64,000 nt of DNA from an uncultured virus (IMG/VR IMGVR_UViG_3300032167_006623) (IMGVR_UViG_3300032167_006623); one strand, 5' to 3'. Shown: positions 45,405 through 63,790, counted from the stretch's first letter. Made by a program: numbers and translations. The notes: generated by a model not told the origin, from the sequence alone.

Positions 45405-45438
45405 ACGGCGAAAGACTCGCCGTCGGGTTTTAAATAAA
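45405..45438 (+). promoter_or_regulatory. Hairpin-CGG-N9-AAA element, first of the leading-region series
   Basis: ACGGCGA-AAGAC-TCGCCGT-CGGGTTTTAAATAAA; identical copy at 46323-46356. Confidence 0.75.
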
Positions 45439-45450
45439 AAACGAGAGGAA

Positions 45451-45735
45451 ATGATTATTATGACACATGCACAGTTTATGGAAAGAATTAACGCTATCAC
45501 AGCACAAAGCATTGCTTATGCTACCGAACATGCTGAAGAAATCAAGCAGCGACGGGAAGAAAGTATAACCAACTCTGAGAAACTCATTGGAGCTATTCTC
45601 CTTGACGCTAAGAATGCACCTAAGAAATCTTGGACTGTATATGAAAGCTTCAAGAACAGAATTTCTGTGACAGCAACAAGTTCTGAACAGTATGAAATCG
45701 CTATTCAGAAACTTACAAAAATTCTGAACGTATAA
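45451..45735 (+). CDS. hypothetical protein
   Basis: GAGG RBS after hairpin element. Confidence 0.7.
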   Translation: MIIMTHAQFMERINAITAQSIAYATEHAEEIKQRREESITNSEKLIGAILLDAKNAPKKSWTVYESFKNRISVTATSSEQYEIAIQKLTKILNV

Positions 45736-45795
45736 AATACCAAAGCTGTCAGCCAACTGACAGCTTATTATTTCAAAGAAAGGATGATTTTAATT

Positions 45796-46203
45796 ATGTC
45801 AACTATCAACGTTGCGGGTGTCACATTCGCAAATCCCGATAACGAAAGCCGTCAGGAAATTCTGAAAAATCTCGGCTTTGGCTATCATTATGCTATTCTT
45901 CAACAGACTACATTTGAGAATGAACGAGCTGTTGAGGTTTGGGTAGATAGCAAACTCATCGGATACGTTCCTCGAAAGGAACTCGGCAATCCTATGAGCT
46001 ATGAAGCGATTCTGGTCGTCCAGATATGCTATAATGAAGAAACTGATACTTTTTATGCCATTCTCTCCCCTATTGAGCCATTAAGCTTTGAGCAGATGAA
46101 TGAAATGTCAGAATTTTTCAAAGAACACCATCCTGAGCTACCCATTGTCTTTGACAAAAGGGCTTACGCAATAATGAAATACGTGCTTATACCGCAGTTG
46201 TAA
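45796..46203 (+). CDS. HIRAN-domain protein
   Basis: VAGVTF...RQEILK...ERAVEV...IGYVPR. Confidence 0.8.
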   Translation: MSTINVAGVTFANPDNESRQEILKNLGFGYHYAILQQTTFENERAVEVWVDSKLIGYVPRKELGNPMSYEAILVVQICYNEETDTFYAILSPIEPLSFEQMNEMSEFFKEHHPELPIVFDKRAYAIMKYVLIPQL

Positions 46204-46401
46204 CTGCGGCGGATTTGCAATAAAAACAGATAATTGAGTAGGTGATTCAGTGTCACACGGAACGGTAATAACCGCGAAGAGCTCGCCACGGCATTGCATT
46301 ATTGGTGAAAGATTATCTGAATACGGCGAAAGACTCGCCGTCGGGTTTTAAATAAAAACAGAGATTATCATAATCTCACAACTATGAAAGGAATTGATAC
46401 T

Positions 46402-46818
46402 ATGAAGAATACTATTCGCGTTGCAGGAGTAACATTTTCAAACCCAGACGGTACAAACCGTCAGGATATTCTTAAGGGCCTTGGCATTGGCTGGAAAACA
46501 GCAAAGCTGAAGCAGACAACTTTCGAAGGTGAAAGAGCTGTAGAGGTTCGCATCAATGGTCATCTTGTTGGCTATGTTCCAAGAACACAGCTCAGCAATC
46601 CCCTCTCTTCGATGACAGAACTTACGGCAATGGTAGAATACTACCCCGCTAAGAAAGCAAATGGCGACGGAAAGTGGTATGTGACACTTTCAGAGAGAAT
46701 CAGACCAAGTTCTGCAGAATACGGTCTCATGAAGAAGCTCTGTGCAGAAGCAAAGCTCCCTATGCCTGCATATGACACCAGAGCCTACGCAGGTTACTGG
46801 GCTGTCGTAAAGGCTTAA
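46402..46818 (+). CDS. HIRAN-domain protein (paralog)
   Basis: VAGVTF...RQDILK...ERAVEV...VGYVPR. Confidence 0.8.
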   Translation: MKNTIRVAGVTFSNPDGTNRQDILKGLGIGWKTAKLKQTTFEGERAVEVRINGHLVGYVPRTQLSNPLSSMTELTAMVEYYPAKKANGDGKWYVTLSERIRPSSAEYGLMKKLCAEAKLPMPAYDTRAYAGYWAVVKA

Positions 46819-46878
46819 AAACACAGACCCCGGCTTAACAGCTGGGGTCTTATTTTTTATTAAGAAAGGACTATAATT

Positions 46879-47148
46879 ATGAAAATTTTTACACATATTT
46901 TGAGTATTATACTCGGCATTGTCGTTATCGCATTTGCCCTTATCATCTCCCCTATCATAACCTTTGGTGCAGGTTATCTTGGCGGAATGATTCTTGAGTT
47001 AATTGTTGGAGATTGTATTACGGCTACTCTTAATACAATCTTTGACACAACTCGTTTCACAAATGACTTGATTCCACCTGTTTGTGCCGTACTTGCTGTA
47101 CTTGGCAGTTTCTTCAAGCCATCTATTGAAAATAAGAAAGATGAATAA
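46879..47148 (+). CDS. small membrane protein
   Basis: Hydrophobic, AAAGGA RBS. Confidence 0.7.
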   Translation: MKIFTHILSIILGIVVIAFALIISPIITFGAGYLGGMILELIVGDCITATLNTIFDTTRFTNDLIPPVCAVLAVLGSFFKPSIENKKDE

Positions 47149-47158
47149 GGGTGAAATT

Positions 47159-47368
47159 ATGCCAGAAATAAAATATCCTGTTGATATCGACAAATACAAA
47201 GATTTAGTCGATGAACCTGAAGACTCGGCTATACCTAAAAATGTCATCATTGTGACAAACAATGAAGCTAAAAGCAGAGAGATTATTGCTAAGGCAATGA
47301 TTGAAATGTACTGGAAACAATTGAATGAAAAGAATAAGCAACTGAGTGAAAAAATGGGTGATAATTAA
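47159..47368 (+). CDS. hypothetical protein
   Basis: AAGGGTG RBS before MPEIKYP. Confidence 0.55.
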   Translation: MPEIKYPVDIDKYKDLVDEPEDSAIPKNVIIVTNNEAKSREIIAKAMIEMYWKQLNEKNKQLSEKMGDN

Positions 47369-47572
47369 AGCTATGCTTCGGCATAGCTTTTTCTTTACAA
47401 CAAACAACGGCTGCATTTACGCAGCCGTTATTTGCTTGACAAAATAGAGATGGAAATCAAAACATTTCGTTACTCATTCGTCATTGTAACAAAATTTCAA
47501 CACTTTGTCAAGCAAATAATTGTGAACAATTAGCAAGCGTGACCGCTTGCCGGATTTGTAATAAAAAGAATA

Positions 47573-47602
47573 GTCAGCTGTAAAGACGTTAAAACAGAGA
47601 AA
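47573..47602 (+). promoter_or_regulatory. conserved 30-nt leader motif GTCAGCTGtAAAGACGTTAAAACAGAGAAA (copy 1 of 6)
   Basis: Also at 56512, 57608, 58128, 58984 and 63930, always directly before an RBS. Confidence 0.8.
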
Positions 47603-47615
47603 TGGAGTGTATATC

Positions 47616-47753
47616 ATGTTTGAATATAAGATTTCTTATGAAGAAGCTGTTGAACAGTTTTTAAGCGACCATCCTGAATTCTTTCCTACTGATATTGAAT
47701 ACTGTCCTGATGTATTCCGTCAGATGTGCGAAGAAACAGGCTATGTTGCATAA
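47616..47753 (+). CDS. 45-aa acidic protein (not in ORF track)
   Basis: GGAG RBS; MFEYKISYEEAVEQFLSDHPEFFPTDIEYCPDVFRQMCEETGYVA. Confidence 0.7.
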   Translation: MFEYKISYEEAVEQFLSDHPEFFPTDIEYCPDVFRQMCEETGYVA

Positions 47754-48019
47754 ACACTCCGTATGTGATACGGAAATACTCCGTATTACATACGGATATT
47801 ACTCTTAAATCTAAAGAAATTCCTTTTAAAAGTTTTTAAGAGGAATTTCTATGCAGATTGAAATCTGCACGGGTTTTATTTAAAGCTGATTATTCACTGC
47901 GTACAGGCCGACTGTAGTCATCGTAAATGTCAAACAGGAGCAGCAAGTCACGTGTGCGGCACATTTTGCAGCATTTACCGTAGTGAATGATTATATAAAA
48001 GAAAGGATTGTGTATACTT

Positions 48020-48199
48020 ATGACTACTATTATTGCAATTTTTATGGTTCTTGTTATGGCTGCTGCTAATTATGCAGTTTTCAATGCTGATGATGTAATG
48101 CTTCTCGAAGGTGAATACGAGGATTATTATGGCCGTGACGAGTCTGAACCAGAGGGTTGGACAGAAGAGATGGAAAAAGAATATTATGGTCTTGATTGA
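48020..48199 (+). CDS. small protein, TM plus acidic tail
   Basis: AAAGGA RBS. Confidence 0.6.
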   Translation: MTTIIAIFMVLVMAAANYAVFNADDVMLLEGEYEDYYGRDESEPEGWTEEMEKEYYGLD

Positions 48200-48213
48200 A
48201 AGGAGTAATCACA

Positions 48214-48372
48214 ATGATTGAAGTATCAAAGATGTCCAAGAAAGCACAGAAAGAATATTACAGCAGACAGCGTAATACATGGGGTTCTCTCTCCCCTGTT
48301 ACACGTAAGCCTGCTAAGCCTCAGGCTTACAATCGTGCTAAAATGAAGTCAGCTCTCCGAGCTGACTTTTAA
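48214..48372 (+). CDS. 52-aa basic protein (not in ORF track)
   Basis: AAGGAG RBS; MIEVSKMSKKAQKEYYSRQRNTWGSLSPVTRKPAKPQAYNRAKMK... Confidence 0.7.
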   Translation: MIEVSKMSKKAQKEYYSRQRNTWGSLSPVTRKPAKPQAYNRAKMKSALRADF

Positions 48373-48530
48373 TTTTTTTTGTGTCTGTTTGTATGTCGTT
48401 TTGCATGTACGTATGTATGTCATAATGAATGTCAAAAATAAACACCTGACGGTGTTTCGGATTTATTATAAAAGAATTATAATTCTTTCTCCTGATAATA
48501 AGCGTGAACGCTTATCGGGTGTTTTTTAAA

Positions 48531-49257
48531 GAATGAAGTGGGACGATGGTCCATAGCTGTCATTCGCCGGGTCCGAATTGCCCGTGACAGGCTGCTCCTG
48601 TTGAAGAAATGTGTCGCATTCGCAAGCTTGGCAGTGGCTAATTAAGCTTGCAAATTGGTGTTAATGCTGAATTCGCAGATGAGTTTAACACCGACTGCAT
48701 CGCAGTATAAACAAGCGATAAGAGTGAAGTGGGACGACGGTCCATAGCTGTCACTCGACAGGTACAGATTGCCTGAGACAGCGCTCCTGTCTGAATAAGC
48801 GTTGCAGCCTTTGTAAGCATAGGCTGAGGAAATAAAGAAGCTTACAAAATTCATAACAGATACTGAATCTGCAGGGTAACTCAGTTATGGACTGTTTTTA
48901 ACAGTATAAACAACAATCAGGCAGCATGACTGCCGATATGGGAACATAGCTTAGCGGATAAAGCAAGTCTTTGTAAGGGGTTCAACTCCCCTATCATCAA
49001 CGGATTTGATACATGGACAGTCTACGCGGGTTCGAATCCTGCTGTTCTCACCAGAAGCTGTCAGCAATTGCTGCCGTACGGGCAATGGAGTGCGTACGGA
49101 GCGCAGACGGCGTCGATTGTGCCTGCATGTGCCGAAATCAGTGCCTCCATGCAGGGCGTCGACTTAATTAAGCTCATTACTCATTATATACATTCCTCTC
49201 TCTCCTTTCTGAATACACCGTATGTGCCCTCCCGCATACGGTGTATTTCTTTTTTTC
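48531..49257 (+). ncRNA. about 720-nt structured non-coding transcript or ncRNA cluster
   Basis: GC-enriched, no credible ORF; follows two hairpin elements (48440, 48498); ends in terminator at about 49213-49257. Confidence 0.6.
48940..49053 (+). tRNA. tRNA-like element with expanded anticodon/variable region (possibly Tyr-GTA-derived)
   Basis: Acceptor GGGAACA/TGTTCTC-A-CCA, D arm GCTT/AAGC, T arm GCGGG-TTCGAAT-CCTGC; 114 nt. Confidence 0.6.
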
Positions 49258-49304
49258 ACATTGAAGCATTACATGAAGCTTCAATGTGATATTTTTTTTG
49301 TATC

Positions 49305-49465
49305 AATATTGTAACAAAAATGGGTATCTTTTTGTTACAATATTGCACACTGATTTTTATTGTTACAATATTGTAACAATAAAAGCACCAAAATTGATAC
49401 AATTTTGTTACACGAACTTTTTTGCTACAATTTTGTTACAATTTTGGTGCAAAAATTGTTACACC
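49305..49465. repeat. second TTGTTACAA repeat cluster
   Basis: Same repeat as 45174-45352, next to promoter TTGACA(49467)-N17-TATAAT. Confidence 0.8.
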
Positions 49466-49528
49466 CTTGACATTTGGTGACAAATGTATTATAATGATAC
49501 ATATATCAAATTATGAAGGATGTGCATC

Positions 49529-50515
49529 ATGGGAAAAACAATAAAAGCAATAGCCGACGAACTCGGCATATCCAAACAAGCTGTATACAAGCGTGTTACA
49601 GGCAAGCTTAACACCGTATGTGCTCCACATACATATATGGAGAACAACGTCATGTTTCTGGATGAAGAAGGCGAAGCTATTGTAAAAAATGATTTTAAAA
49701 ATAAACCATGTGCTACTCCCCTATTTCGTACGGAGCAAATACTTATGTCATATGGAGCTAATACGTCACCATATCCAAATCCAACGGTTCCTTACGTACA
49801 ACATACGGAACAGATACGGAATAACTCCGATAATATGCCTCAAAATCCATACGGAGCACTCCCCTATCCTACTCCGAATCAATCCATTCAATACGTATCC
49901 AATACGGAGCATATCCAAACCACTCCTGTTTCAAATACGGAACACTCCGGCATTCCTATTCAAAACACATACGGAACACCGCAGCAATTCACTCCTAATC
50001 CGTATCCCAATCCGTATACGGAGCAATCCGTATCTAATCCTAATATGGATACGCATACGGAGCAAATATCAATTCCTGATACGGAGCAAATACAACCGAC
50101 ATACGGAGCTGATACGGAAGATGTGAATTTATTACGTATGCAGCTTGAGGAAATCAAAGAAAAAAACCATGAAACTGAGATTGAACTTGTTAAAGCTAAT
50201 GCTGAAAAAGAGAAATATGAAGAAATAATCAATCAGCTTAACCAAAGACTCAAAGATAAAGATTCACAAATCATGGAACAGCGTTTGTTAATAGAAAAAA
50301 CCGACAATGAACGTAAGATTTTAACGGCTTCATTGTTTAGAAACAATGAATTTTTAAGGAAGCTATTGCAGCTGCCGTTAGCTAAACGTATTTTTGATTG
50401 GAAAAATATCCAAAAACGACTGATGACAGAGCAGGATGACATTTCAAATGACATAATAGGGGAATCAGATATTGATGTTTCACTATTTGATGAAAATATT
50501 AGTAAAAAGGATTGA
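49529..50515 (+). CDS. pSK1 Par-like HTH/coiled-coil protein
   Basis: KTIKAIADELGISKQAVYKR N-terminus resembles staphylococcal pSK1 Par; C-terminal coiled coil. Confidence 0.65.
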   Translation: MGKTIKAIADELGISKQAVYKRVTGKLNTVCAPHTYMENNVMFLDEEGEAIVKNDFKNKPCATPLFRTEQILMSYGANTSPYPNPTVPYVQHTEQIRNNSDNMPQNPYGALPYPTPNQSIQYVSNTEHIQTTPVSNTEHSGIPIQNTYGTPQQFTPNPYPNPYTEQSVSNPNMDTHTEQISIPDTEQIQPTYGADTEDVNLLRMQLEEIKEKNHETEIELVKANAEKEKYEEIINQLNQRLKDKDSQIMEQRLLIEKTDNERKILTASLFRNNEFLRKLLQLPLAKRIFDWKNIQKRLMTEQDDISNDIIGESDIDVSLFDENISKKD

Positions 50516-50880
50516 TTGGAATGTTGTTTTATACTCAAAAACATGAAATGAATTATCTATGGTTCTTTGCAAAAATGCCTCGTGATGTCTATCACAGAGC
50601 ATTGATTTATTTATTAACCTTGGATGAAGCCTGCTGTGACCATATTTCAGAGATATATGATTTTGAAAATCAGCAAATTATTCCTGAAGCATTGACAAAA
50701 CCTTGGAATACTTCAGTATCCATAAAGACAATGAGGCTTGCTTTTAATCTTTTCACAGGTCATACAAATTGGTCTGATGATAAAAGTCCTGATTTATTCA
50801 GTCCGGCTGAATTGTTTTGTTCAGAATATATGAAATATTACATTGAAGCAGTTAAAATGCGTTATCCTGAGTTTATGTAA
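50512..50880 (+). CDS. DUF6075-like protein
   Basis: DVYHRALIYLL...IYDF...WNTSVS...RLAFNLF. Confidence 0.7.
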   Translation: MIGMLFYTQKHEMNYLWFFAKMPRDVYHRALIYLLTLDEACCDHISEIYDFENQQIIPEALTKPWNTSVSIKTMRLAFNLFTGHTNWSDDKSPDLFSPAELFCSEYMKYYIEAVKMRYPEFM

Positions 50881-51109
50881 ATACGGTTTTACAACCGTTC
50901 GGGGTGTATATAAAAATGATTTTTACTTATTTTTTGATATACATTTCCTTTCGAGTAGGGAACCAGTTGCTTAAAGCAGTGGTTCCTTATTTTTTTTGGA
51001 ACACTTACGTATATTTTACGTATTTAATACGTATGCAAATTTTTTTTCATATCCAAATGCTCAGCATTTGGCGGATTTATTATAAAAAATTTGAAAGGAT
51101 TGAAATGTT

Positions 51110-51799
51110 ATGAGAATCGCTGATACTATTGATATTTTTAAAGAAACTGCAGACGCTGTGTGTGTTACTACAAATGGAATCGTTAAGCGTGACGGTTCAG
51201 CTGTAATGGGTGCAGGTATTGCAAGATTGGCTGATGCTAAATATAAGCTTGCATCAAAGCTTGGTGCAATGCTTAGAAAATCAGGCAATCATTGCTATGA
51301 TATGGGTCTTTATGATAATAAGCATATCGTTACTTTTCCAACCAAAAAACATTGGAAAGATATGAGCAGCATTACGCTCATTAAGCAAAGCTGTCATGAA
51401 CTTGTAGCTATGGCTGACAAGAACAACTGGAGTAATGTTTTGCTGCCGGCTATAGGCTGTGGTCTTGGTCAGCTTGATTTTGAGACACAGGTAAAGCCTG
51501 CAATCGAGACTATTCTTGATGACAGATTTACAATTTGTTTTCTCACCAACGCCCGCCAGTCTGATAAAGCAGGGGAGTGTGCTGATAAAAAATTCGAGCA
51601 TAACGGTTATGTGATTTCCCAGTGCGGAAGCAATCATCATGTTATGATTTCCAAGGATGGAAAGATGGTATTTCATTCACAGGTTGACCACGATATGAAC
51701 CGTGAAGAACTCATCAAAGTTTTTGACGGCTATATCGAGCTCACAAAACACATTGATTTTGCCAAAGAGTTTTACAGAAATGAAGGGAGAATAGATTAA
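51110..51799 (+). CDS. macrodomain ADP-ribose hydrolase (DarG/TARG1-like) with C-terminal extension
   Basis: VTTNG, VMGAGIA, FPTKKHW, PAIGCGLGQL. Confidence 0.85.
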   Translation: MRIADTIDIFKETADAVCVTTNGIVKRDGSAVMGAGIARLADAKYKLASKLGAMLRKSGNHCYDMGLYDNKHIVTFPTKKHWKDMSSITLIKQSCHELVAMADKNNWSNVLLPAIGCGLGQLDFETQVKPAIETILDDRFTICFLTNARQSDKAGECADKKFEHNGYVISQCGSNHHVMISKDGKMVFHSQVDHDMNREELIKVFDGYIELTKHIDFAKEFYRNEGRID

Positions 51800-51800
51800 T

Positions 51801-52046
51801 ATGAACGAATGCGCTTTTTGCAAACATATGGAGTTTCTTAAGGGTCTTGAAGAGGATTTTCAGAATAATCCGAATCGATACAATAAAGAATCCCATACTT
51901 ATGCACTCAAATCAGCATTGATTCATCAGAGCTACTATGAAGGAAGACCAACAGGTAGTTCAACTATTGAATTTTCACTTAATTTCTGTCCTGAGTGCGG
52001 CAGAAAAATCGATGAAACGGAAAAGGGAAGTGCTGTAAATGCTTAA
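51801..52046 (+). CDS. zinc-finger protein
   Basis: CAFC...FCPECGRKI. Confidence 0.7.
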   Translation: MNECAFCKHMEFLKGLEEDFQNNPNRYNKESHTYALKSALIHQSYYEGRPTGSSTIEFSLNFCPECGRKIDETEKGSAVNA

Positions 52047-52563
52047 TACACCAAAATGCTTGAATTCATACAATGATTTCAAGGTGAATGATACTGTATA
52101 TATCTATCATTCTCTTGCAAAACCTGAGCCGTTTATGCGAGGTCGTATCACTATCATTCATGAAAATGATGATTTTACAGTATCATTTTTCGTTGAATGG
52201 GAAACAGGCGATGGTAGTTGGGCTGTTCCTGAGCATGTTTTCAAGACAAAATATGATGTTCTTGATTACATAGAGCGACAAAAAGACGCTGAAAAGAATA
52301 AATACAAGGTCAATATCAGGTCTTTTGATGATTTGATTGATTTTTGTATCCAGACTATCACATATACAAATGACCCTGACTATGCTGCTATTGCGGCTAT
52401 AAAAGAAAAATACGAAGAACTCAAATCAGAAACATCTGAAACCATGATAACGCCTATCGGTATTCTGCCTATAAATGCAGACGGTATGAAAACAGTAGTA
52501 TCTGAGTTAAATAAGCTCCGGACGAAGCTTAATAATATCAGAAAATGCTGCGATAATGATTAA
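52039..52563 (+). CDS. hypothetical protein
   Basis: Shares C-terminal TPIGxLxI motif with 52584 and 53202. Confidence 0.7.
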   Translation: MLNTPKCLNSYNDFKVNDTVYIYHSLAKPEPFMRGRITIIHENDDFTVSFFVEWETGDGSWAVPEHVFKTKYDVLDYIERQKDAEKNKYKVNIRSFDDLIDFCIQTITYTNDPDYAAIAAIKEKYEELKSETSETMITPIGILPINADGMKTVVSELNKLRTKLNNIRKCCDND

Positions 52564-52583
52564 TTTTGAAAGGATTTGATACT

Positions 52584-52952
52584 ATGTCAACAATAACAAT
52601 GGAACATTCCAAGTATTCCGTAAACATTACCAATGAAACCACTATGGAATATCGCATCACACGAGGTGATGAAGATGTAACAAAGGCTCTTGACAGCAAT
52701 TTTGCAAGAGATATGATTTATGAAATTGCAAAGCTCAGAGAAGAAAATGAGCGTCTCAGAACTGCTGTCAATGCTGAAATTACAAATCCTGCAATTATGA
52801 CAAGTCCGATAGGGGATTTGACTATTGATTCAGCAGGTATGCGTAAAGCCATCGATACAATCGACGCTCTTCAGAAAAAACTCAAGCAGGTTGAATCAGC
52901 GGCAGGTTATCTTCAGTATGTGCTGAATGATAACAAAGCAGATAACACTTGA
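52584..52952 (+). CDS. hypothetical protein (paralog of 53202)
   Basis: MTSPIGDLTIDSAGMRKAID. Confidence 0.7.
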   Translation: MSTITMEHSKYSVNITNETTMEYRITRGDEDVTKALDSNFARDMIYEIAKLREENERLRTAVNAEITNPAIMTSPIGDLTIDSAGMRKAIDTIDALQKKLKQVESAAGYLQYVLNDNKADNT

Positions 52953-52969
52953 TAACGAAAGGAGTCCAT

Positions 52970-53170
52970 ATGAGATTCACAAATTTGTTCATCGGATATA
53001 ACGAAATCGAAGACTTCCGTATTCTCATCTGTGCATTTGACACAGAAGAAGCAAGCGAACTTGCTGAAGAATACCGTGTTGATTCAAATATGGACGGACA
53101 TTTCGATATATCCGAACCGACAATGTCTATTGACAACACGCATTTTGACTGTGATTACGTTATTTCGTAA
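52970..53170 (+). CDS. small acidic protein
   Basis: AAGGAG RBS. Confidence 0.65.
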   Translation: MRFTNLFIGYNEIEDFRILICAFDTEEASELAEEYRVDSNMDGHFDISEPTMSIDNTHFDCDYVIS

Positions 53171-53201
53171 GCATTGAAAAAAGCAGAAAAGGAGAATATC
53201 T

Positions 53202-53573
53202 ATGAGCATATCCAATGAAATTGAGCATGGTTATACGGTTGAATTAAAAACCGACCGTATAATTCCTCAGAACCCGTCATATCGCATTACACAGAACGAT
53301 GTTGATGTTACAGCACGCTTTGAAAATTCTTTTACAGAGGCTATTATTAATGCATATTTTAATGAAAAACACGCTAATAGCATCTTGGAGAACAAGAATA
53401 AAAGGCTCACTGAAACAATTGAGACCTATTCTTCCAAAGCAGCTGTCATGACGAGTCCAATCGGCGATTTGACCGTTGATTCAGCAGGTATGAGAAAAGC
53501 AATTGATGAAATCGCTCATCTCAGAAGCGTAATCGCTGATATCAAAACCATTTGTAATATGAATTTACAGTAA
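53202..53573 (+). CDS. hypothetical protein (paralog of 52584)
   Basis: MTSPIGDLTVDSAGMRKAID. Confidence 0.7.
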   Translation: MSISNEIEHGYTVELKTDRIIPQNPSYRITQNDVDVTARFENSFTEAIINAYFNEKHANSILENKNKRLTETIETYSSKAAVMTSPIGDLTVDSAGMRKAIDEIAHLRSVIADIKTICNMNLQ

Positions 53574-53787
53574 AATACGAGGTGATATCATGAATAAAAT
53601 AGTAAGAAACGATGTAACAAGACTTGATAATACTTGTATTCATCGCCAGAATGGTTGCTGCATCAAATGTGGTGAAAGCTGCCCCGGAATAGTAAAATAC
53701 AGTGAAAATAACGATAATAACCTGCCTTGTGATATGGTTGGTTATGAACCCACTGATGAATCGCTGTAAACAGAAAGGACAAACATC

Positions 53788-53982
53788 ATGACCAAAGTAA
53801 AATTCTTTTGGAATAATTCACAAGAAGCTCTTGAAGCTGATGTCAATAAATTTATTGAACAGCTTGAGATTAAGCATTTTGCCGTGAATGTTGTGAGCAT
53901 TTCTTATTCTACAAGCAAAACTGTTTCGAATTATCAGATTGACCACCATTGTTGTTTATGCTATCGTTGTGAAAATATGTAA
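53788..53982 (+). CDS. small hypothetical protein
   Basis: AAAGGA RBS; KVKFF...LEADVNKFI. Confidence 0.6.
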   Translation: MTKVKFFWNNSQEALEADVNKFIEQLEIKHFAVNVVSISYSTSKTVSNYQIDHHCCLCYRCENM

Positions 53983-54031
53983 TTGCTTTGCAATCGGTTT
54001 GTCTCTAAAATCATGAAAAGGAGAATATGGT

Positions 54032-54502: not shown

Positions 54503-54554
54503 ACAAAAGCCAGCCTTTACGGCTGGCACTTTTTTATAGAAAGGACGATGAAAT

Positions 54555-55217: not shown

Positions 55218-55327
55218 TTCAGCCAATTCTATAATAATTTCTGCTTTATCATCTTTATTATCATCTCTTTTAACATAACTCCGTTATGTCGGACTTGTAA
55301 TAAAAATTTTATAAGGAGAGATTTGTA

Positions 55328-55753: not shown

Positions 55754-55803
55754 GCTATAATCACGGCTATCTTAGCCGTGATTCATTTTAATATGAAAGG
55801 ATA

Positions 55804-56259
55804 TTGACTATGAAATTTGAACACACTATTGAAGCTTTGAGACTTTGTTCTCAGAATTATGACAACTGTAAAGATTGTCCATATGAAAACATCGAACGCT
55901 GCACTGAGCACCTGCATTTCAATGCTCTCATTGAAATCAAGCACGTATCTGCGAAAATCAAAGAATCAAACCCTGATTTCTTTGAGAATTTATCGCAGGA
56001 AACAGCTCAGCTTTACAACCGAGTTAATCGCAGCTTGGATGCTTGTCAGACATTGAGACATTGTGGACGCTGTGATTATTCAAACGGCTGCAGCAATTAT
56101 TCATCTCATAATGGTGAACGTGCATTACGAGCTGATACACTGACAATACTTACGGAATTACATTCCACATATGATGAACTATGTGATGAAAAAGAAGTTT
56201 TGAATGTTATTGAATTCAAACATCAATATACGAAGATGCGGAGGTATAAAAATGTTTGA
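55804..56259 (+). CDS. Cys-rich hypothetical protein
   Basis: Two CxxCxY repeats. Confidence 0.65.
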   Translation: MTMKFEHTIEALRLCSQNYDNCKDCPYENIERCTEHLHFNALIEIKHVSAKIKESNPDFFENLSQETAQLYNRVNRSLDACQTLRHCGRCDYSNGCSNYSSHNGERALRADTLTILTELHSTYDELCDEKEVLNVIEFKHQYTKMRRYKNV

Positions 56260-56455
56260 AAATATCAAAAAATTCATTGAAGAAACCGAAACAATCAAAA
56301 ATAAGATAGAACAGACATCAGAACAGCTCACAGACGAAGAAACAGATTGTTTCGAATATATGCATTTTCATATCGCAAAAGCACTCATACGTGATTTGGG
56401 CAAAAAGGATTCGTCTAAAATCGCAAAAATAATTCTTACCTTGATGGAAGAATAA
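56252..56455 (+). CDS. small hypothetical protein
   Basis: GGAGG RBS. Confidence 0.6.
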   Translation: MFENIKKFIEETETIKNKIEQTSEQLTDEETDCFEYMHFHIAKALIRDLGKKDSSKIAKIILTLMEE

Positions 56456-56555
56456 AAATTTTCACTTCATGGCAAGCAGTTGCTTGTAACTGCCAGAATT
56501 TCAATAAAATAGTCAGCTGTAAAGACGTTAAAAACAGAGAAAAGAGGAATCCATC

Positions 56556-56786
56556 ATGGCTTATGTATCTGAAGAACAGTATAACTACATTCGCAACAAT
56601 CGTGACATCATTGACGGTTGTCTTAATCGCATTGCTGTTACCGATGAACCCGCTGAAATTGAACAGCAGCTTGAAACCCTCAAGCATTACATCGAACAGT
56701 ATGCCGAGCGCAATCGTGAACGAATTCGAGGTGAATTCAAGCCTGAACCCATTCGTTCAATCTCTGATGACGGTCTTGATTTTTAA
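56556..56786 (+). CDS. small protein ending SDDGLDF
   Basis: Preceded by hairpin element, leader motif and GAGG. Confidence 0.75.
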   Translation: MAYVSEEQYNYIRNNRDIIDGCLNRIAVTDEPAEIEQQLETLKHYIEQYAERNRERIRGEFKPEPIRSISDDGLDF

Positions 56787-56819
56787 GAACAACCCTGCTG
56801 TAATACAGCAGGGTTTTTA

Positions 56820-56997
56820 ATATCACTCACGTGATATCGGATTTATATTAAAAAATAACGTTGAAAACAATCATGAATGATTGTCGGAAATGTTATAAAC
56901 AATAATTTTTCCGAAAAATAATGACTGAAAACAGTCATCGGGAAAGTTATAAAAGAACCACGAAAAACAGTTTCACAACTGTCGGAATGGTAATAAA
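56820..56997 (+). repeat. four tandem hairpin-CGG-N9-AAA elements
   Basis: At 56820, 56867, 56921 and 56967; different stems, same architecture. Confidence 0.8.
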
Positions 56998-57045
56998 AAA
57001 TCAGAGGTAACAATGCCTCACAACTTTGAAAGGAAGTATAATTTT

Positions 57046-57342
57046 ATGAAAACTTTTATCGTATCTACAAAGATGATTATTGCCAAGAACATTGCATGTA
57101 AAGCTCTCAAGGCTGCTGACAACAATGACGTTACACACGGTCTTTACAAGAAGGCGTGTATGGACGGCGGCAAGATTGTAATCACAAACATTGCAGAAAT
57201 GCAGGCATGGCAGACAGCTATCAGCGCTTACAAGGCAGCTAACACTACTGAAGGCAAGGTTCTCAGAGTGCTTAAGAGAAATGCTACACTTGGTCTTAAG
57301 AGCCGTCTTGACGCAGCTACAACTCCTGCTACAGCTGCATAA
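57046..57342 (+). CDS. hypothetical protein
   Basis: AAAGGA RBS; N-terminus resembles 58170. Confidence 0.7.
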   Translation: MKTFIVSTKMIIAKNIACKALKAADNNDVTHGLYKKACMDGGKIVITNIAEMQAWQTAISAYKAANTTEGKVLRVLKRNATLGLKSRLDAATTPATAA

Positions 57343-57650
57343 CAACAAATCAACCAACCGTTTAACGGTTGGTTGATTTTTTTTCTTTGTTTGACAGCAG
57401 TCTACTGCAAATCTCCGCTTGCAGACAAGCTTTGATAATTGACCTGATGAATCAGGTCATTGCTTAACAAAACTCACGAGGGTGAGTATTGTTAAGCAAC
57501 ACAGCTATCATTATGTATTCATGACATTAGGATAATATTTTGATTAACGCTTTGCGATTATTTTCTCCAAAAAAACAGACTCCGTCTGTCTGATTTTCAA
57601 TAAAATAGTCAGCTGTAAAGACGTTAAAACAGAGAAACGGAGAGAATACT

Positions 57651-58022
57651 ATGAGAAATTTTGAAAATATGGAAGCAATTGCAACAGAAATCGAAGCAAT
57701 TATTTCAAGAGAAGGGGAGTATCAGAATGAAAATATTGATACCAATGCACCTCTTTTCTTACAGATTGCAAGAAATACACAGGACAAAAAGGCTGTGATT
57801 GAACACATAACAGCTGCATTGACTAACGATAAGCATGAAATTGATGAAATCTATCATTATCTTGAATATAGTGAAGATGAAATAGCATCTGATTACGAGT
57901 TTGAAAAGCATACAAACAACAATGTATCAGATGAAACAGCTAATCGTTTTGCAGCAATAGAACGCATAATCACAGCTGTTGAGGATTGTGGTAAGAAGCT
58001 TCTTGCCACAATTTCTGAATAA
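57651..58022 (+). CDS. acidic hypothetical protein
   Basis: Hairpin element, leader motif, GGAG RBS. Confidence 0.75.
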   Translation: MRNFENMEAIATEIEAIISREGEYQNENIDTNAPLFLQIARNTQDKKAVIEHITAALTNDKHEIDEIYHYLEYSEDEIASDYEFEKHTNNNVSDETANRFAAIERIITAVEDCGKKLLATISE

Positions 58023-58169
58023 AACAATCAAAAAAAACTAATCAGAAGCTCACGCTTCTGATTAGTTTTCCATAGTCTCTGACAGCAAGCGTGACCGCTT
58101 GCCGGATTTGCAATAAAAAGAATAATTGTCAGCTGTAAAGACGTTAAAACAGAGAAAAGAGGAAATGTT

Positions 58170-58472
58170 ATGTTTGTTATTTTTGTAAAAAATTTCATCG
58201 CAAAATGCGTAGTTTTCAATGCACTTAAGTCATACATTGACAATGAAACAGCTGTTGCTCTTCGCAAGAAAGCCCGTGAACAGTGTGATTCAGGCGAATT
58301 TGTACTTGACACATTTGTTGAAGTAGAAGAATGGAATAAGATTCTGCTTGCTTATAACCCTAAGACTAAGGCAGAACAGACCGTTCGTGAAGCAATGCTC
58401 AGAAGTGTCACAAACGAAATCGAAGATGTCAAGTGTATAGAGCTTGACTGGCGTTATGCTTGTATGGATTAA
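58170..58472 (+). CDS. hypothetical protein
   Basis: Hairpin element, leader motif, GAGG RBS. Confidence 0.75.
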   Translation: MFVIFVKNFIAKCVVFNALKSYIDNETAVALRKKAREQCDSGEFVLDTFVEVEEWNKILLAYNPKTKAEQTVREAMLRSVTNEIEDVKCIELDWRYACMD

Positions 58473-58486
58473 GAAAGGATGGGACT

Positions 58487-58882
58487 ATGAAAAATTTTAC
58501 TACAACGGCTAAAATGAGCTATGATGAACTCAAAGGGGTGTTCCCTATGGAAGAAAGCTTCACTGTCAACAATATTGATATTGAATATCTTGGCATCACC
58601 TTTGACGGTGAAATGGCTTATGAATTTGATGGTCTTATTGTTGACAGAGACCGCCTTTTGGAGCTGATTTATGCAATGTGTCTTGCTGATGACATCATGC
58701 TTGATAAAGGCGTTCTGCTCACAGAAGCCACTGAAACTGATGATTTCAGCTTTATTGAAGAACTTCAGAAGCTTGTTTCAAAGCTTGAAACATTTGAATT
58801 CTGTCAGCCAAGAACAGAAGCTCTGGATGAAATTATCAGACTTGCCAGAAAATATGACAGAATACCATCTGTCGAATTGTAA
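58487..58882 (+). CDS. acidic hypothetical protein
   Basis: AAAGGA RBS. Confidence 0.7.
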   Translation: MKNFTTTAKMSYDELKGVFPMEESFTVNNIDIEYLGITFDGEMAYEFDGLIVDRDRLLELIYAMCLADDIMLDKGVLLTEATETDDFSFIEELQKLVSKLETFEFCQPRTEALDEIIRLARKYDRIPSVEL

Positions 58883-59024
58883 CAAATAAAAATCAGAAGC
58901 GAAAAAGGCTTCTGATTTTTTATTTTAAGCCTTACGGCAAGCAGTTGTGAACAACTGCCGGGATTTCAATAAAAAGAACAATTGTCAGCTGCAAAGACGT
59001 TAAAACAGAGAAATGAGGAAATGT

Positions 59025-59435
59025 ATGTATACTTTTAAAATTGAAAATATGACCAAGGATGCAATTCTTGAAGCAATGATTGCTGCTTATAACGAACACA
59101 AGGGTCGTTTTGCAATCAAGCTTTCCGAAGAAGAAACAGCTTTCGTCAGAGCTTTTGAATACAAGCCTGACCACAAAGACTGTGAATGGTTCTTTGTAGA
59201 CGGTACTGAGTATCCATGGGTAAGCGATGATAGTCTTGAAAAGCTTGCTGGTTACTTTGCAAACTATAGCAAAGAAAAGGCAGAGCTTGCTGAAGAAAAG
59301 GCTAAGCTCAGAGCTTATGCAGAGGAACTTAAGGCAATTACTGATAAAAATTCCGAAGAATACCGTGAAAAATTCGGATATTACAGTGATTGGCATAAGG
59401 ACCTGTACGGCAGACGTCCCAGAAACATCATATGA
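59025..59435 (+). CDS. hypothetical protein
   Basis: Hairpin element and leader motif; YSDWHKDLYGRRPR C-terminus. Confidence 0.75.
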   Translation: MYTFKIENMTKDAILEAMIAAYNEHKGRFAIKLSEEETAFVRAFEYKPDHKDCEWFFVDGTEYPWVSDDSLEKLAGYFANYSKEKAELAEEKAKLRAYAEELKAITDKNSEEYREKFGYYSDWHKDLYGRRPRNII

Positions 59436-59532
59436 TAAAATAGCCTGTCAGTTTGATAACTGACAGGTTTTATTTTTTTCTTGAATGTCAAACTTCGATG
59501 CCTTTTTAGTATGCCTGTCTTGATGTCAAAAG

Positions 59533-59741
59533 AAACACCTGACGGTGTTTCGGATTTATTATAAAGAGTTACGATAAAACAAACAAAAATGTTTGTCGGT
59601 TGTAATTCAAAAGATACGATAAAACAAACAGGAATGTTTGTCGGTTGTGTCTTAAAGAAATGCCGATGTTGCGAACGGGGTCTGCTTGACAGATGTCCAG
59701 CTCATAATGCAATCAAGAATGATTGCCGGTGTTTTAAGAAA
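59533..59741 (+). repeat. four clustered hairpin-CGG-N9-AAA elements upstream of ssb
   Basis: At 59533, 59579, 59624 and 59709. Confidence 0.8.
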
Positions 59742-59957
59742 GGAAATGTAATAAGTGAGAAGTAGGTTCCTGCAGGGATGTTCATACCTACATAAACAAG
59801 TTACATTAACATTCTTCGATAGTTAATCCTGAAAGTGAGTTCCTGTCTGGCGATTCATACTCACACACAAAAGAGTAAGCTATCATGTACGTCATAAACA
59901 TAGGGCGGTGTTACATGCCGCCCAAAAATTAAAAACAATTTTTTGGAGGTAATCTAT

Positions 59958-60380
59958 ATGAACATGAACAACTTTTCCGTACTCAGAGGACGTCTTACTG
60001 CTGACCCTGCAATCTTTAACAACAAAGATGGCTCCAGCAAGGTAAAGTTCACCATCGCTTGTGAAAACAACTATAAGAACAAGGAAGGTAAGCGCGACGT
60101 TCAGATGATTCCCGTTGAAGCTTTTGTTAAGGCTGATTACGACAAGTCTCCTTTCGCAAAGATTCACAAGGGCGACAAGGTAAGCGTTGAGTGTTCGCTC
60201 AGAACAAACAACTATGAGAAGGACGGTCAGATGGTTTACTCCACTGTAGTCTTCGTTGAAGGCATTCAGTTCGAGGAAAGCAAGTCCGTTACTGATGCAC
60301 GTCTTGCGGCAAGAGACGCAGACGCTGCAACAGCTGCTGCTGCAACAATTGCAGAAGCTCCTGCTGAGGCTCAGGCATAA
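59958..60380 (+). CDS. ssb: single-stranded DNA-binding protein
   Basis: NNFSVLRGRLTADP, FTIA, KGDKVSVE.SLRTNNYEKDG; lacks acidic tip. Confidence 0.92.
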   Translation: MNMNNFSVLRGRLTADPAIFNNKDGSSKVKFTIACENNYKNKEGKRDVQMIPVEAFVKADYDKSPFAKIHKGDKVSVECSLRTNNYEKDGQMVYSTVVFVEGIQFEESKSVTDARLAARDADAATAAAATIAEAPAEAQA

Positions 60381-60523
60381 GCCTGACCTCGCAGTCACAT
60401 AATAACAAAAGCCAAGGCTTCGGCCTTGGCTTTTTTTTTCAACAGCTCGCAAGCTCGCAGTATCGCTTCGCAGCGATACGGAATTTCAATAAAATATTGA
60501 AATAAAAAAAGGAGAAATGTATT

Positions 60524-60901
60524 ATGTCAACAATAACAGGTTTTATAGGGATAACCGATATAGGAGCCATTTTTGTAAACTTGGAACACACCATTTCTGT
60601 CTCTGATAATGGAACAACACAAGAACATATTGATGAATTATTTGAAATATGTCAAGAAATATGTGAAGACGAAGTTGAAACCATTTACTGTATATTTGAC
60701 AGTAAAATCGACCTTGACACATGTGAAATCATAATATCTGACGGTTCATATGAAAATGGAACAGAACGGATAAACGACAATGCTATGTATGTTTACAGTG
60801 AAGAATATGCTGATTTCATAGCAAGTGTATCCGCAACTCTTGAAAATGGAGAAGAATTCTTCAAAGATTTGAATGAAAATTACTTATCCTTTGACTATTG
60901 A
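60524..60901 (+). CDS. highly acidic hypothetical protein
   Basis: Hairpin element at 60461; AAGGAG RBS. Confidence 0.7.
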   Translation: MSTITGFIGITDIGAIFVNLEHTISVSDNGTTQEHIDELFEICQEICEDEVETIYCIFDSKIDLDTCEIIISDGSYENGTERINDNAMYVYSEEYADFIASVSATLENGEEFFKDLNENYLSFDY

Positions 60902-61241
60902 TTCTGCTATCAATCAATTTTTGACAAATCAGACACGTTTCGTGTCTGATTTTGTTTTCTTATTCTCAGATTAAAATGTAGTTGCAATCTTCAAGGGGAT
61001 GGGGCGGTCTCATCGCCGCAGTTGTAATGAGCTACCGAGTACCTCATTACAACAATAGCTTCCGTTTTCTTGACGTGCCTCATAATCTGATATATACTCA
61101 AAACAGCAACATTTGTTTCTGTTACTATATATAACCTACACGTCCCTGTAAATAATGATTTACAGGGAGAAGACCTTAAACCTAATCTGACCTGTTCGGT
61201 CAGACGGTTTTTCAATAAAACTTGAAAGGATATGTTGATTT

Positions 61242-61526
61242 ATGAAAGAACCCGGATTTGTCAAAGAAGCTCGTGAATATGGTATGTCAGAAAGAGACAT
61301 TGATTTCTTGAAATCAGTATACGAGCGTCATAAGAAAATAAACTCAGATGATAATGACTGTGAGCGATTTTGCAAAACAGCAATACAAGAGGATATTCAT
61401 CCTGATGATATTGCTCCAGCTGTTGCTTTGATTGAAAAACACCGTCATGCTTCTCGTAATAACGATAAGTCTTTTGATATCAATGACCTAAAGAAGCAGT
61501 TGCAGAAAGACTCTGCGACAAAATAA
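61242..61526 (+). CDS. hypothetical protein
   Basis: Hairpin element at 61186; AAAGGA RBS. Confidence 0.7.
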   Translation: MKEPGFVKEAREYGMSERDIDFLKSVYERHKKINSDDNDCERFCKTAIQEDIHPDDIAPAVALIEKHRHASRNNDKSFDINDLKKQLQKDSATK

Positions 61527-61546
61527 TAATAAAACACTGAAAGGAA

Positions 61547-61879
61547 ATGATTATTATGCCAATAATAAGAAAATGTATTCATCTCTCAAGTGATGAAAAA
61601 GTAATGCTTACAAAAGCCGTAACGAACATTATTGATGAGTGTCTCATTGGAACAGATAGTGACATGTATGATATTTACAGACATATCATTGTTAAGCTTG
61701 ATGCGCTCACAATCAAACCTGCCCGTATACCGGGTCATATTGAAGAGCATTATTCTCTGGACATTGTTGGCGGTGAATACGACAGCTGTCTTTTTGCACT
61801 CAGCAATTTTGCTGACAACACAGACATGCTTCAGACTAAAATTCGCAATGCACCGAATGTTTGCGAAAAATATATCTGA
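61547..61879 (+). CDS. hypothetical protein
   Basis: AAAGGA RBS, terminator after. Confidence 0.7.
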   Translation: MIIMPIIRKCIHLSSDEKVMLTKAVTNIIDECLIGTDSDMYDIYRHIIVKLDALTIKPARIPGHIEEHYSLDIVGGEYDSCLFALSNFADNTDMLQTKIRNAPNVCEKYI

Positions 61880-62198
61880 CTTTTTAAGTAACCTATATGT
61901 AAATAAAAATCAGCTGCTCACGCAGCTGATTTTTCTTTTTGATAACTGTGAAACCATAGCAAGTCTTTCAGACTATTGCAGCTTTGCTGCAGTATAATTT
62001 GTCTCCGTGCGGAGCTTCCCGGTCACAGACCAGTTCAGCACCGCCATTCCGCCAAATTATATCCACAGCTTTATAAAACTTATTATGTGACAAGAACCAA
62101 TCCAATCAGAAACGTTGTTTCAATACCCAATAACGAGCCTGACGGCTCGTCGGGTATCAAATAAAAAGCTTATTTGCTTAAATCGGAGGAAATGTAAT

Positions 62199-62405
62199 AT
62201 GTTTATTATCAACTTAATCAAAGCATTGGTTATCGGTATTCATGATGAAATGAAATGGAATGGTCAGAACCTCAAGAATGCTATTCTTGAAGAATACTAC
62301 ATGATTAAAAATGTAATGGGTCTTGACCTTTACGTTAAATACATGAATGGCACTGCTGTTGAAGGCGTTGACTATTTTGAAAATATCGACCATGTTTGCT
62401 GTTAA
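62199..62405 (+). CDS. small hypothetical protein
   Basis: Hairpin element at 62133; GGAGG RBS. Confidence 0.65.
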   Translation: MFIINLIKALVIGIHDEMKWNGQNLKNAILEEYYMIKNVMGLDLYVKYMNGTAVEGVDYFENIDHVCC

Positions 62406-62679
62406 TGATGAACCCGGACGCATTTGCGTCTGGGTTTTTCTTTTTCTTGACCCGTAATTTAATATCTCGTGACTATCTCGTGAAATCAACACGATATTCA
62501 CAAAATAAGCAAAAGATATCAAATTTCATTTTTATATGAATAACGTTTTGTTCTAATACAATAATACAAGTCCTTTTGGGGACTTATTCTTTTGTATTAA
62601 AATTGCAATTCTTGCAAAATGCCCCTGCGGGGCATCGGATTTGCAATAAAAATTCTATATTGAAAGGAAAAGAGAATAA

Positions 62680-62922
62680 ATGTTACAGGAATACGCTGAA
62701 ATCAGAAACAGAATAGGGGAGCCACGTTATAATGAAATAACTGCATTTCTTGACGCCAATCCTGAATTTGATTTATCCGATGTATACTACAATCCATATG
62801 TTCACGCCATGAGTGTTCAGTGGGCAAGAAATACATTCGGAAAAACAGTATACGACGAGACTGACAACGGTCTCTACAAATTCGATATCGTTGCTGACGA
62901 CGGCGACGACTTACCGTTTTGA
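62680..62922 (+). CDS. small protein ending DDGDDLPF
   Basis: Hairpin element at 62619; paralog of 62938. Confidence 0.75.
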   Translation: MLQEYAEIRNRIGEPRYNEITAFLDANPEFDLSDVYYNPYVHAMSVQWARNTFGKTVYDETDNGLYKFDIVADDGDDLPF

Positions 62923-62937
62923 AAGGAGAAATAAACA

Positions 62938-63180
62938 ATGACTGTTATCAACGCTTATGAAAATATCAAAAACGAAATCGGACAGAACCGATTAAATGAA
63001 ATGTGGGCTTATCTTCATGCTAACCCAAATCGTATGTTTTCTGATATTTTCTATAACAAAGAAATCCATGCAGAAAGCATCCAGTGGGCTAAGGATACAC
63101 TTGGTTTCACATATGCTTCCGATGATGAATTTGAAATCATCTCCGCCGAACTTGCAAAGGTCAACGAAATATGTGCTTGA
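62938..63180 (+). CDS. small hypothetical protein (paralog of 62680)
   Basis: Y.xI.N.IG..R.NE..A.L.ANP...SD..YN...HA.S.QWA shared. Confidence 0.75.
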   Translation: MTVINAYENIKNEIGQNRLNEMWAYLHANPNRMFSDIFYNKEIHAESIQWAKDTLGFTYASDDEFEIISAELAKVNEICA

Positions 63181-63196
63181 GAAAGGAATAATATTT

Positions 63197-63571
63197 ATGA
63201 AAAAATATGAACTTGTTGAAACATTTACTTTTGTACTTTATGACAACGTGTCTGTAACAAAGTCTACCAAAACTGCTGACCTCGGTAGAATGGTACCAAA
63301 ACATTTTATTGTACCATGCAATGACCCTGAAAACAAATATTCAAACGGAGAATACACAGATGGTTACTCCGATGGTACACATAGCGAATATTGCTTCTGT
63401 TTTGATAATCTGCTTGATTGTTACACACATTGTCAATTTGATAAGACCAGATGGTCTGAAATCAATATCGACAAACTTGATGAAGCAGACAAACTTCTTG
63501 CACAGCAGATACTCAATAAGATTGCTGAATCAAATGATTGTTTTCCACAGCAGTTGTCCAAGACCATCTAA
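63197..63571 (+). CDS. hypothetical protein
   Basis: AAAGGA RBS before MKKYELV. Confidence 0.65.
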   Translation: MKKYELVETFTFVLYDNVSVTKSTKTADLGRMVPKHFIVPCNDPENKYSNGEYTDGYSDGTHSEYCFCFDNLLDCYTHCQFDKTRWSEINIDKLDEADKLLAQQILNKIAESNDCFPQQLSKTI

Positions 63572-63757
63572 ACCTCATATTCCGATTTAAGCCATCAGCT
63601 TAAGTCGGAATTTTTTCTGCTTTTAACAAAGCAGCGGGTTGTGTACAAAGGATAAGAAATACGCCAACACATTCTCACAAAAGGTCTCAACCTACGGGTT
63701 GAGATTTTTTTATTTATAATACGACAACATTTATTGCTATTTTCGATTTCTAAGATA

Positions 63758-63790
63758 ACGCTCCTTACGGAGCGTCGGGATTCCAATAAA
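63758..63790 (+). promoter_or_regulatory. Hairpin-CGG-N9-AAA element
   Basis: ACGCTCC-TTAC-GGAGCGT-CGGGATTCCAATAAA. Confidence 0.75.

Follow-up and report, generated by a model that had tools for sequence, protein, structure and literature searches.

Hairpin-CGG-N9-AAA elements as candidate promoters of a plasmid-encoded fused beta-beta' RNA polymerase

IMG/VR entry IMGVR_UViG_3300032167_006623 is catalogued as an uncultured virus; the stretch of it analysed here, 64,000 nucleotides (nt) long and referred to as the window, reads from its gene content as a diverged conjugative plasmid. It carries on one strand 37 copies of a compact element, a short inverted repeat abutted by CGG with AAA nine nt further on. 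We consider it probable, at a little over 60%, that these elements are promoters of a plasmid-encoded RNA polymerase and drive the plasmid's establishment genes. The enzyme would be a single-chain fused beta-beta' polymerase of the two-barrel type, about 2000 amino acids (aa) long; its gene would be next to that for the coupling protein, in the part of the transfer region immediately beyond the window, and the elements would be the sites that the enzyme reads.

The family had been predicted by eye, from the sequence alone, as one of a single orientation, and it proves real when counted. Searched with a strict pattern (a perfect stem of 5-9 base pairs (bp) around a loop of 3-6 nt, followed without a gap by CGG-N9-AAA), the + strand of the window yields 33 copies and the - strand 0, against a mean of 0.28 for both strands together, maximum 2, in 100 second-order Markov shuffles; by the opposite-strand and shuffle controls proposed with the original prediction, the motif is thus neither present on the - strand nor comparably frequent in shuffled sequence. 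Hairpins accompany 33 of the 47 CGG-N9-AAA sites of the + strand and 0 of the 15 on the - strand, and among the 251 + strand hairpins with stems of at least 6 bp the following trinucleotide is CGG in 29, the runner-up being found in 11. Four variants bring the total to 37. Thirty of the 33 starts first listed are strict copies and the other three, at 50883 (an extra base), 56476 (CAG) and 57575 (CTG), are variants, as had been described; strict copies at 2856, 40396 and 63617 and a CAG variant at 63861 had been overlooked, and the statement that 7.7-45.3 kilobases (kb) held none was nearly right, the copy at 40396 being the one strict exception. Another CAG-type match, at 28372, lies within a - strand gene and is probably due to chance. 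In 1.33 megabases of unrelated DNA (125 loci) there are only 9 strict copies, scattered and single. Scans of larger collections with a 26-nt element pattern gave 5 loci in viral_contigs and at least 120 in genome_contigs; none of these matches has the hairpin, and we therefore rejected them as chance.

The consensus runs A-W-A, a 7-bp stem of any sequence with a loop near TGAC, CGG, R-TTT-nn-W-A-T and AAA. Stems are of 7 bp in 30 of the 37 elements, loops of 4 nt in 25 and of 3 nt in five. As had been seen by eye, the stems vary freely while continuing to pair: 32 of the 37 are distinct, and pairing is kept in every one. A count by spacer length peaks sharply at 9. Upstream of the element nothing is conserved beyond 3 nt, which points to the element itself as the signal. 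Folded as DNA it yields about -6.5 kcal/mol on either strand (mean minimum free energy (MFE) -6.4 to -6.6).

The elements behave as promoters and are located where promoters sit, as had been proposed. An RBS-led start (one preceded by a ribosome-binding site, RBS) on the + strand lies within 60 nt of 18 of the 37, and the others head tandem arrays or structured leaders. Between 45 and 64 kb, terminator-like sites are enriched (62, with 11.4 +/- 3.9 expected), separate terminators standing upstream of many elements, whereas sigma-70-like sites are not (77, with 64.7 +/- 8 expected). Every one of the small establishment genes, from ssb, macro, NADAR and RNase H to the many unknowns, forms a cassette of its own, complete with element, RBS and terminator.

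RNA contigs from two bovine-gut metatranscriptome runs were aligned to 45-64 kb; they derive from relatives, with up to about 12% of letters differing, and stretches without contig cover are uninformative. Seven of the 16 contig pieces listed start 17-38 nt past a CGG, at 46372 (past the element at 46323), 48483 (48440), 56923 (56867), 56961 (56921), 58976 (58941), and 59573 and 59577 (both past 59533). Over the ssb unit two RNA pieces run from just past the first of its four tandem elements to 60389 and 60401, a terminator beginning at 60407; the downstream members of the tandem lie inside the transcribed ssb leader. Elsewhere, pieces end at 57337 and 57346, just short of the terminator at 57347. 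The contigs thus support transcript starts at the elements and, coming as they do from a gut community, suggest expression outside fresh transconjugants.

No candidate for a polymerase was found among the window proteins. Two were considered and rejected: one of 746 aa, which resembles surface proteins and gave a poor Atlas model, and one of 2055 aa with a signal peptide, transmembrane segments and a long repeat region. A search with the relaxase led to a 198,537-bp IMG/VR contig (G001) whose relaxase is 76% identical to that of the window and whose gene order mirrors it; a metagenome scan with the same protein returned three copies of a G001-like relative and nothing else. The 21 strict elements of G001 all lie on the same strand, between 2.6 and 101.5 kb, and their loops are mostly TTGC, so that the search of a relative suggested with the original prediction reproduces the strand bias. 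Fourteen kb past the relaxase, downstream of a VirD4-like coupling protein, G001 encodes a fused beta-beta' protein of 1985 aa. It matches the Pfam family RNA_pol_Rpb2_6 above the cut-off (E 3.8e-7, 30 bits) and RNA_pol_Rpb1_2 below it (E 2.7e-4, 21.7 bits), and contains GDK..GNKGVIS, a GNKG-type motif of beta, and the DFDGD of beta'; across 30 homologues, DxDGD and DK..GNK do not vary. Residues 640-1660, modelled with AlphaFold, give pLDDT 88.9 and pTM 0.85, and all 50 Foldseek matches listed for the model, of at least 500 with E <= 0.001, are bacterial RNA polymerase chains, nearly all of them beta'. By domain, motif and predicted fold, the protein is assigned to the two-barrel (multisubunit-type) RNA polymerases, with two predicted double-psi barrels.

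This family comprises at least 135 clusters, and nearly all its named members are labelled hypothetical. It occurs on 13 PLSDB plasmids, three actinomycete, five staphylococcal and five lactococcal, with no Bacillus record among them, and tblastn with the plasmid polymerase as query gave no match in 50,697 phage records. All eight PLSDB plasmids that have a relative of the window's relaxase also carry the polymerase, and in relatives its gene lies about 14 kb beyond that of the relaxase. This linkage, together with G001, makes it very probable that the window's replicon encodes the enzyme just past the left edge; the dedicated polymerase that had been postulated beyond the window is to that extent very likely, by extension from these relatives.

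One-stranded arrays were found in six of 11 polymerase-bearing replicons. In the Staphylococcus plasmid SAP020A, in pAYP1020 (50 of 59.7 kb covered) and in a Staphylococcus aureus plasmid (50 of 55.5 kb covered) the hairpin is near AGTGGTTGC and is followed by TAG-N9-AAA, with 12 copies on one strand and 1 on the other, 7 and 2, and 4 (one of them weak) and 0, respectively. These staphylococcal elements have an RBS and ATG about 20-25 nt downstream, ssb included, and compensatory changes are present in their stems. Two further IMG/VR contigs whose polymerases are 32% identical have variable stems, followed in G002 by CTA-N9-AGA (13 copies on one strand, 0 on the other) and in G003 by CGA-N9-TGA/TAA (15 and 1). 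Background, judged from opposite strands and array-negative replicons, is at most about 5 for any box pair. Spacer lengths were tallied in four gut lineages (the window, G001, G002 and G003), and in each the count has its peak at 9. On the template strand the 4-nt loops are GNNA in 15 of 25 in the window and 14 of 16 in G001, compared with 1 and 0 on the sense strand; GNNA loops belong to a class known from stable DNA mini-hairpins. Judged from these sequences, the same putative promoter design recurs with the polymerase, its boxes being lineage-specific.

Signals of known kinds were tried on the element and rejected. As a sigma-70/sigma-A promoter it has its loop TGAC 15 bp from the sole -10-like hexamer, this hexamer, which ends in AAA, having A instead of T at the last position, and the alternative hexamer has the key A in just 7 of 33. 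As an intrinsic terminator it has CGG and no T run after the stem. The Frpo/ssi type is a poor match to a single 7-bp stem with no conserved flank, box positions being paired at 6.0 of 15 on average in folds of +/-60 nt. The N4 type would suit the 7-bp stem of 30 of the 37 elements, yet the loop is of 3 nt in just five and of 4 nt in 25. Pfam matches to T7-like polymerase families, and to sigma-70 family domains, were absent from the 77 window proteins and from the 148 of 208 predicted G001 proteins scanned, and Rfam has no family at the elements. The element is accordingly, as had been supposed, of a compact, structure-dependent class apart from sigma-70 promoters and from the long Frpo/ssi stem-loops.

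In the mechanism we propose, the template strand (in the window, the - strand) would fold at the inverted repeat into a DNA hairpin of 7 bp, whose stem would bound a pre-opened promoter on the upstream side as a duplex edge. At the foot of the stem, three bases (CGG on the + strand) would be recognised as single-stranded DNA (ssDNA), and the rigid 9-nt spacer would bring the template to the active site, with RNA starting about 12 nt from the stem, at or beside the AAA box. Between the upstream fork of the bubble and the active site, multisubunit polymerases likewise span about 12 nt; with duplex edge and proposed start spaced in this way, a template hairpin would supply a ready upstream fork and a single-stranded template. 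That template could be the transferred ssDNA, or a hairpin extruded from supercoiled double-stranded DNA (dsDNA) as in phage N4.

Which of these applies would depend on the strand that is transferred. The MobL relaxase family has pLS20 as its founder, and the strand nicked and transferred in that plasmid is described as the non-template strand of establishment operons that run antiparallel to the conjugation operon (PMC8708921). Establishment and conjugation genes are laid out in the same way in the window, G001 and the staphylococcal plasmids, and by analogy the transferred strand may here be the non-template (+) strand. If this polarity is shared, the arrays would form the leading region, in agreement with their gene content; the sense strand would enter, transcription would wait for the complementary strand, and the hairpin would be extruded from duplex as in N4. 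The polymerase gene, being in the transfer region, would enter last, so that early use of the enzyme in the recipient would need transfer of the protein. We raise, tentatively and as something rather doubtful, that the donor produces the polymerase along with the transfer genes and sends it with the DNA through the type IV secretion channel, as N4 and crAss-like phages inject theirs, and that the enzyme fires the hairpin promoters in the recipient without host sigma, on ssDNA or once the leading region is double-stranded.

Several points weigh against assigning the elements to this polymerase. Its gene lies outside the window, and that this replicon carries it is deduced from relatives. In a screen that covered perfect stems and a set spacing only, five of the 11 polymerase-bearing replicons showed no array: pJM4A, pGKT2 (100 of 182 kb), G004, G005 and G006. 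Because the data themselves guided the choice of boxes in G002 and G003, shuffle controls flatter those boxes, and strand bias alone is independent. The GNNA bias of the template-strand loops is missing from the staphylococcal, G002 and G003 versions. Promoters in tandems of four are unusual. The RNA contigs are unstranded, may have lost tens of bases per end and stop short of giving an exact 5' end; the libraries may contain DNA, and both runs are from one study.

Among other readings, the one that survives best, improbable as we judge it, is that the elements are strictly ssDNA promoters: the hairpin would form on a transferred template strand in the recipient, and the host (or plasmid) polymerase would fire until the complement is made. 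The hairpins are stable as ssDNA (mean MFE -6.4 to -6.6 kcal/mol), the gene content (ssb, macro, NADAR, RNase H) is of the leading-region kind, the arrays are without sigma-70 promoters, and the design would suit a template already single-stranded. However, pLS20 is reported to transfer the non-template strand (PMC8708921), and the same polarity here would make the + strand the one transferred; gut-community RNA contigs cover these genes; and there is no -35/-10 pair for the host enzyme. We find it quite improbable that these are ordinary dsDNA promoters at which host polymerase acts with a plasmid sigma factor or activator bound to the inverted repeat. Their promoter-like positions would fit, and a 331-aa leading-region protein has a weak N-terminal helix-turn-helix (HTH) like sigma region 4 (E 0.008), but the stems keep pairing and not sequence, which argues for structure rather than a sequence-specific dimer, the protein sets given above gave no match to a sigma-70 family domain, and the would-be -10 lacks its key A and T.

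A hairpin beside a fixed trinucleotide resembles primase sites, and many copies in a single orientation, regularly spaced along the region that probably enters first, could be priming signals of the G4-type/ssi-like sort for complementary-strand synthesis on the entering strand, served by the plasmid polymerase or a primase and perhaps alongside promoter use; Frpo is described as doing both jobs (PMC12672017). We think this very improbable. On the + strand the hairpin is 5' of the boxes, where a start with the stem as its upstream edge would need it on the other side; the RNA contigs run in gene direction, from element to terminator; and tight linkage to RBS-led starts is needless for priming. 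The G4-type/ssi geometry would fit only if the + strand is copied toward the hairpin, the direction opposite to that of the RNA contigs. Least probable of all is that the elements act in RNA, as stabilising 5' hairpins, processing sites or antitermination signals of longer transcripts: downstream tandem members are indeed transcribed into the ssb leader, and contigs that lose up to about 50 nt per end could have started at the hairpin itself, but no conserved promoter lies upstream, strong terminators precede the elements, conserved boxes follow the hairpin at a fixed DNA distance and Rfam has no match. Promoters of the plasmid polymerase thus remain the reading we prefer.

The elements, all on the + strand, are distributed as follows; they are strict and of CGG type except where a variant is named. 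Towards the left end are 2734-2766, 2856-2888 (RBS-led start at 2897, 8 nt downstream), 3520-3552, 4442-4474 (no open reading frame nearby, and facing the - strand SocA/Panacea pair described below), 5734-5766 and 7540-7572. The copy at 40396-40428 is between rep and the + strand gene of the 746-aa protein. From there the series resumes at 45405-45438 (gene start 21 nt on), 46192-46224, 46323-46356, 47533-47565, 47852-47884, 48440-48472 and 48498-48530, then a variant with one additional base ahead of CGG (50883-50914), 51053-51086 upstream of the macro-domain gene, 53982-54009 with a 5-bp stem, and 55273-55304 upstream of the NADAR gene. A CAG variant (56476-56508) precedes a tandem of four at 56820-56852, 56867-56899, 56921-56953 and 56967-56997, with a start at 57013, 15 nt past the fourth; a CTG variant follows at 57575-57604. 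Beyond 58085-58117 and 58941-58973 are the four upstream of ssb (59533-59565, 59579-59611, 59624-59656 and 59709-59741), followed by 60461-60493, 61186-61219, 62133-62165, 62619-62650, 63617-63649, 63758-63790 and a CAG variant at 63861-63894.

Some neighbouring sequences are shared among elements. The same leader of about 30 nt follows those at 47533, 56476, 57575, 58085 and 58941, its 22-nt core occurring in 5 copies on the + strand and 0 on the - strand. Short repeats of ATGTCA type at 48370-48440 and 59470-59533 stand directly upstream of the identical elements 48440 and 59533, and may be a regulator site. Downstream of the two tandem elements at 48440 and 48498 is a non-coding stretch of about 550 nt (48516-49068), with RNA-library contigs over 48483-48975, which ends in an Rfam tRNA match (48940-49050, 43.2 bits, 111 nt) and has no ARAGORN call; it may be a structured RNA or tRNA-like gene.

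Rearrangements are seen around the cassettes as well. The last 70 nt of the dUTPase gene and the element downstream of it (4372-4474) are repeated behind a HipA-like gene at 7470-7572, the element at 7540 being the duplicate of that at 4442, which suggests that cassettes move along with their own promoter. At 60438-60911 a relative's DNA contig (run X9) jumps exactly from terminator to terminator, with one element (60461) and its gene gone, and other joints fall inside elements or leaders, at 57595, 57602 and 57611. Gene content seems to turn over by whole cassettes.

The remaining genes of the window, whose 77 proteins were scanned against Pfam, include the 5' part of a MobL relaxase gene (3-983, - strand, truncated at the window start), a Rep3 initiator gene (39067-40347, by domain scan), a ParM-like actin, topoisomerase III, a weak VirB4-like N-terminus and a 1453-aa protein bearing a lysozyme domain. 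Small + strand genes fill 45.4 to 64 kb, among them ssb, macro, NADAR, RNase H and DUF6075; ssb (59943-60380, + strand) has the deepest RNA contig cover of the stretch compared, and in the staphylococcal plasmids too it is preceded by an element. A near-identity search of 45.3-52 kb against PLSDB gave no match, nor did the last window protein against the viral collection. Within 4696-7428, among elements and between the transfer genes and the relaxase operon, the - strand encodes a SocA/Panacea antitoxin-like pair and the + strand a HipA-like kinase. The sole perfect TTGACA-17-TATAAT promoter of the leading region, at 49467-49495, lies amid three inverted repeats with a common TGTAACA core (49355-49520) and precedes the gene of the 331-aa HTH protein and the DUF6075 gene; these are probably an autoregulated repressor operon transcribed by host polymerase. 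In G001, DUF6075 is the C-terminal part of a 391-aa protein. Also in G001, beside the relaxase, a 1369-aa ClpB-like AAA+ protein (128966-133075; L144:8966-13072) has Hint and LAGLIDADG homing-endonuclease domains, by which it is predicted to contain one or more inteins. The 'inverted terminal repeats' recorded for G001 by IMG/VR are the same 48 bases at both ends (L138 start, L147 end), which we take to be sequencing-adapter remnants; with ends of this kind, those repeats do not support G001 as a complete linear replicon.

The closest parallels differ from this system in instructive ways. Phage N4, as described, has early promoters with a small template-strand DNA hairpin (5-7 bp stem), a polymerase supplied by the element and a role for SSB, but its promoters number three, their 3-nt loops carry fixed purines, transcription begins about 4-5 nt from the stem and the enzyme is of the T7-like single-subunit kind (PMC4496689); here loops are mostly of 4 nt, stems free, boxes at 0 and 12 nt from the stem and copies in dozens, with a two-barrel beta-beta' fusion as candidate enzyme. 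Frpo/ssi promoters (F, ColIb-P9, pESBL) likewise lie upstream of leading-region genes (ssb, anti-defence) and need DNA secondary structure; they are reported as large stem-loops that rebuild -35/-10 boxes for host polymerase on the transferred template strand (PMC12672017), whereas the present elements, of 33-36 nt, rebuild no such boxes. Establishment regions of pLS20 (EGeRS1) share the relaxase family, operons antiparallel to the conjugation operon and, as reported, the lack of a sigma-A promoter found upstream, but are conserved regions of about 600 bp (PMC8708921). YonO of prophage SPbeta and the virion polymerases of crAss-like phages, AR9 and P23-45 are also non-canonical two-barrel enzymes of mobile elements, that of AR9 being described as reading the template strand; all are phage-borne, unlike the plasmid polymerase, found in 0 of the 50,697 phage records. 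Promoters of the yeast cytoplasmic linear plasmid pGKL2 are short linear motifs without hairpins. Such plasmids, eukaryotic cytoplasmic elements without conjugation, do encode a fused two-barrel polymerase (Rpb2::Rpb1) for their own genes (PMC2919709). That 2010 survey of non-canonical two-barrel enzymes names yeast plasmid, phage and YonO-like forms (PMC2919709), and in a 2017 survey of proteins that move with mobile DNA, primases are the only ones named for conjugative elements (PMC5512222). Our literature search, with most subscription journals and supplements outside it, found no description of a bacterial conjugative-plasmid polymerase or of such elements, and an earlier report is possible.

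How establishment genes are switched on when a plasmid arrives is largely unknown in Gram-positive plasmids, and the pLS20 literature describes operons without a recognisable promoter. A plasmid polymerase with structure-based promoters would, if true, explain such operons, would free early expression from host sigma factors, with a bearing on host range, and would constitute a third early-expression strategy besides ssDNA promoters and repressor dilution. As the elements can be found by pattern, they serve as markers of cassettes for establishment and anti-defence in uncultured plasmids; with its 9-nt spacer fixed and its boxes differing by lineage, the design is also a natural series for the study of promoter recognition by a minimal multisubunit-type polymerase, and the system is present in sequenced staphylococcal and lactococcal plasmids, open to direct testing. 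Were the enzyme itself delivered with the DNA, expression of ssb and anti-defence genes would be host-independent, self-limiting and 'zygotic', and the polymerase would be a conjugative counterpart of virion RNA polymerase, from gut Clostridia to staphylococci and actinomycetes.

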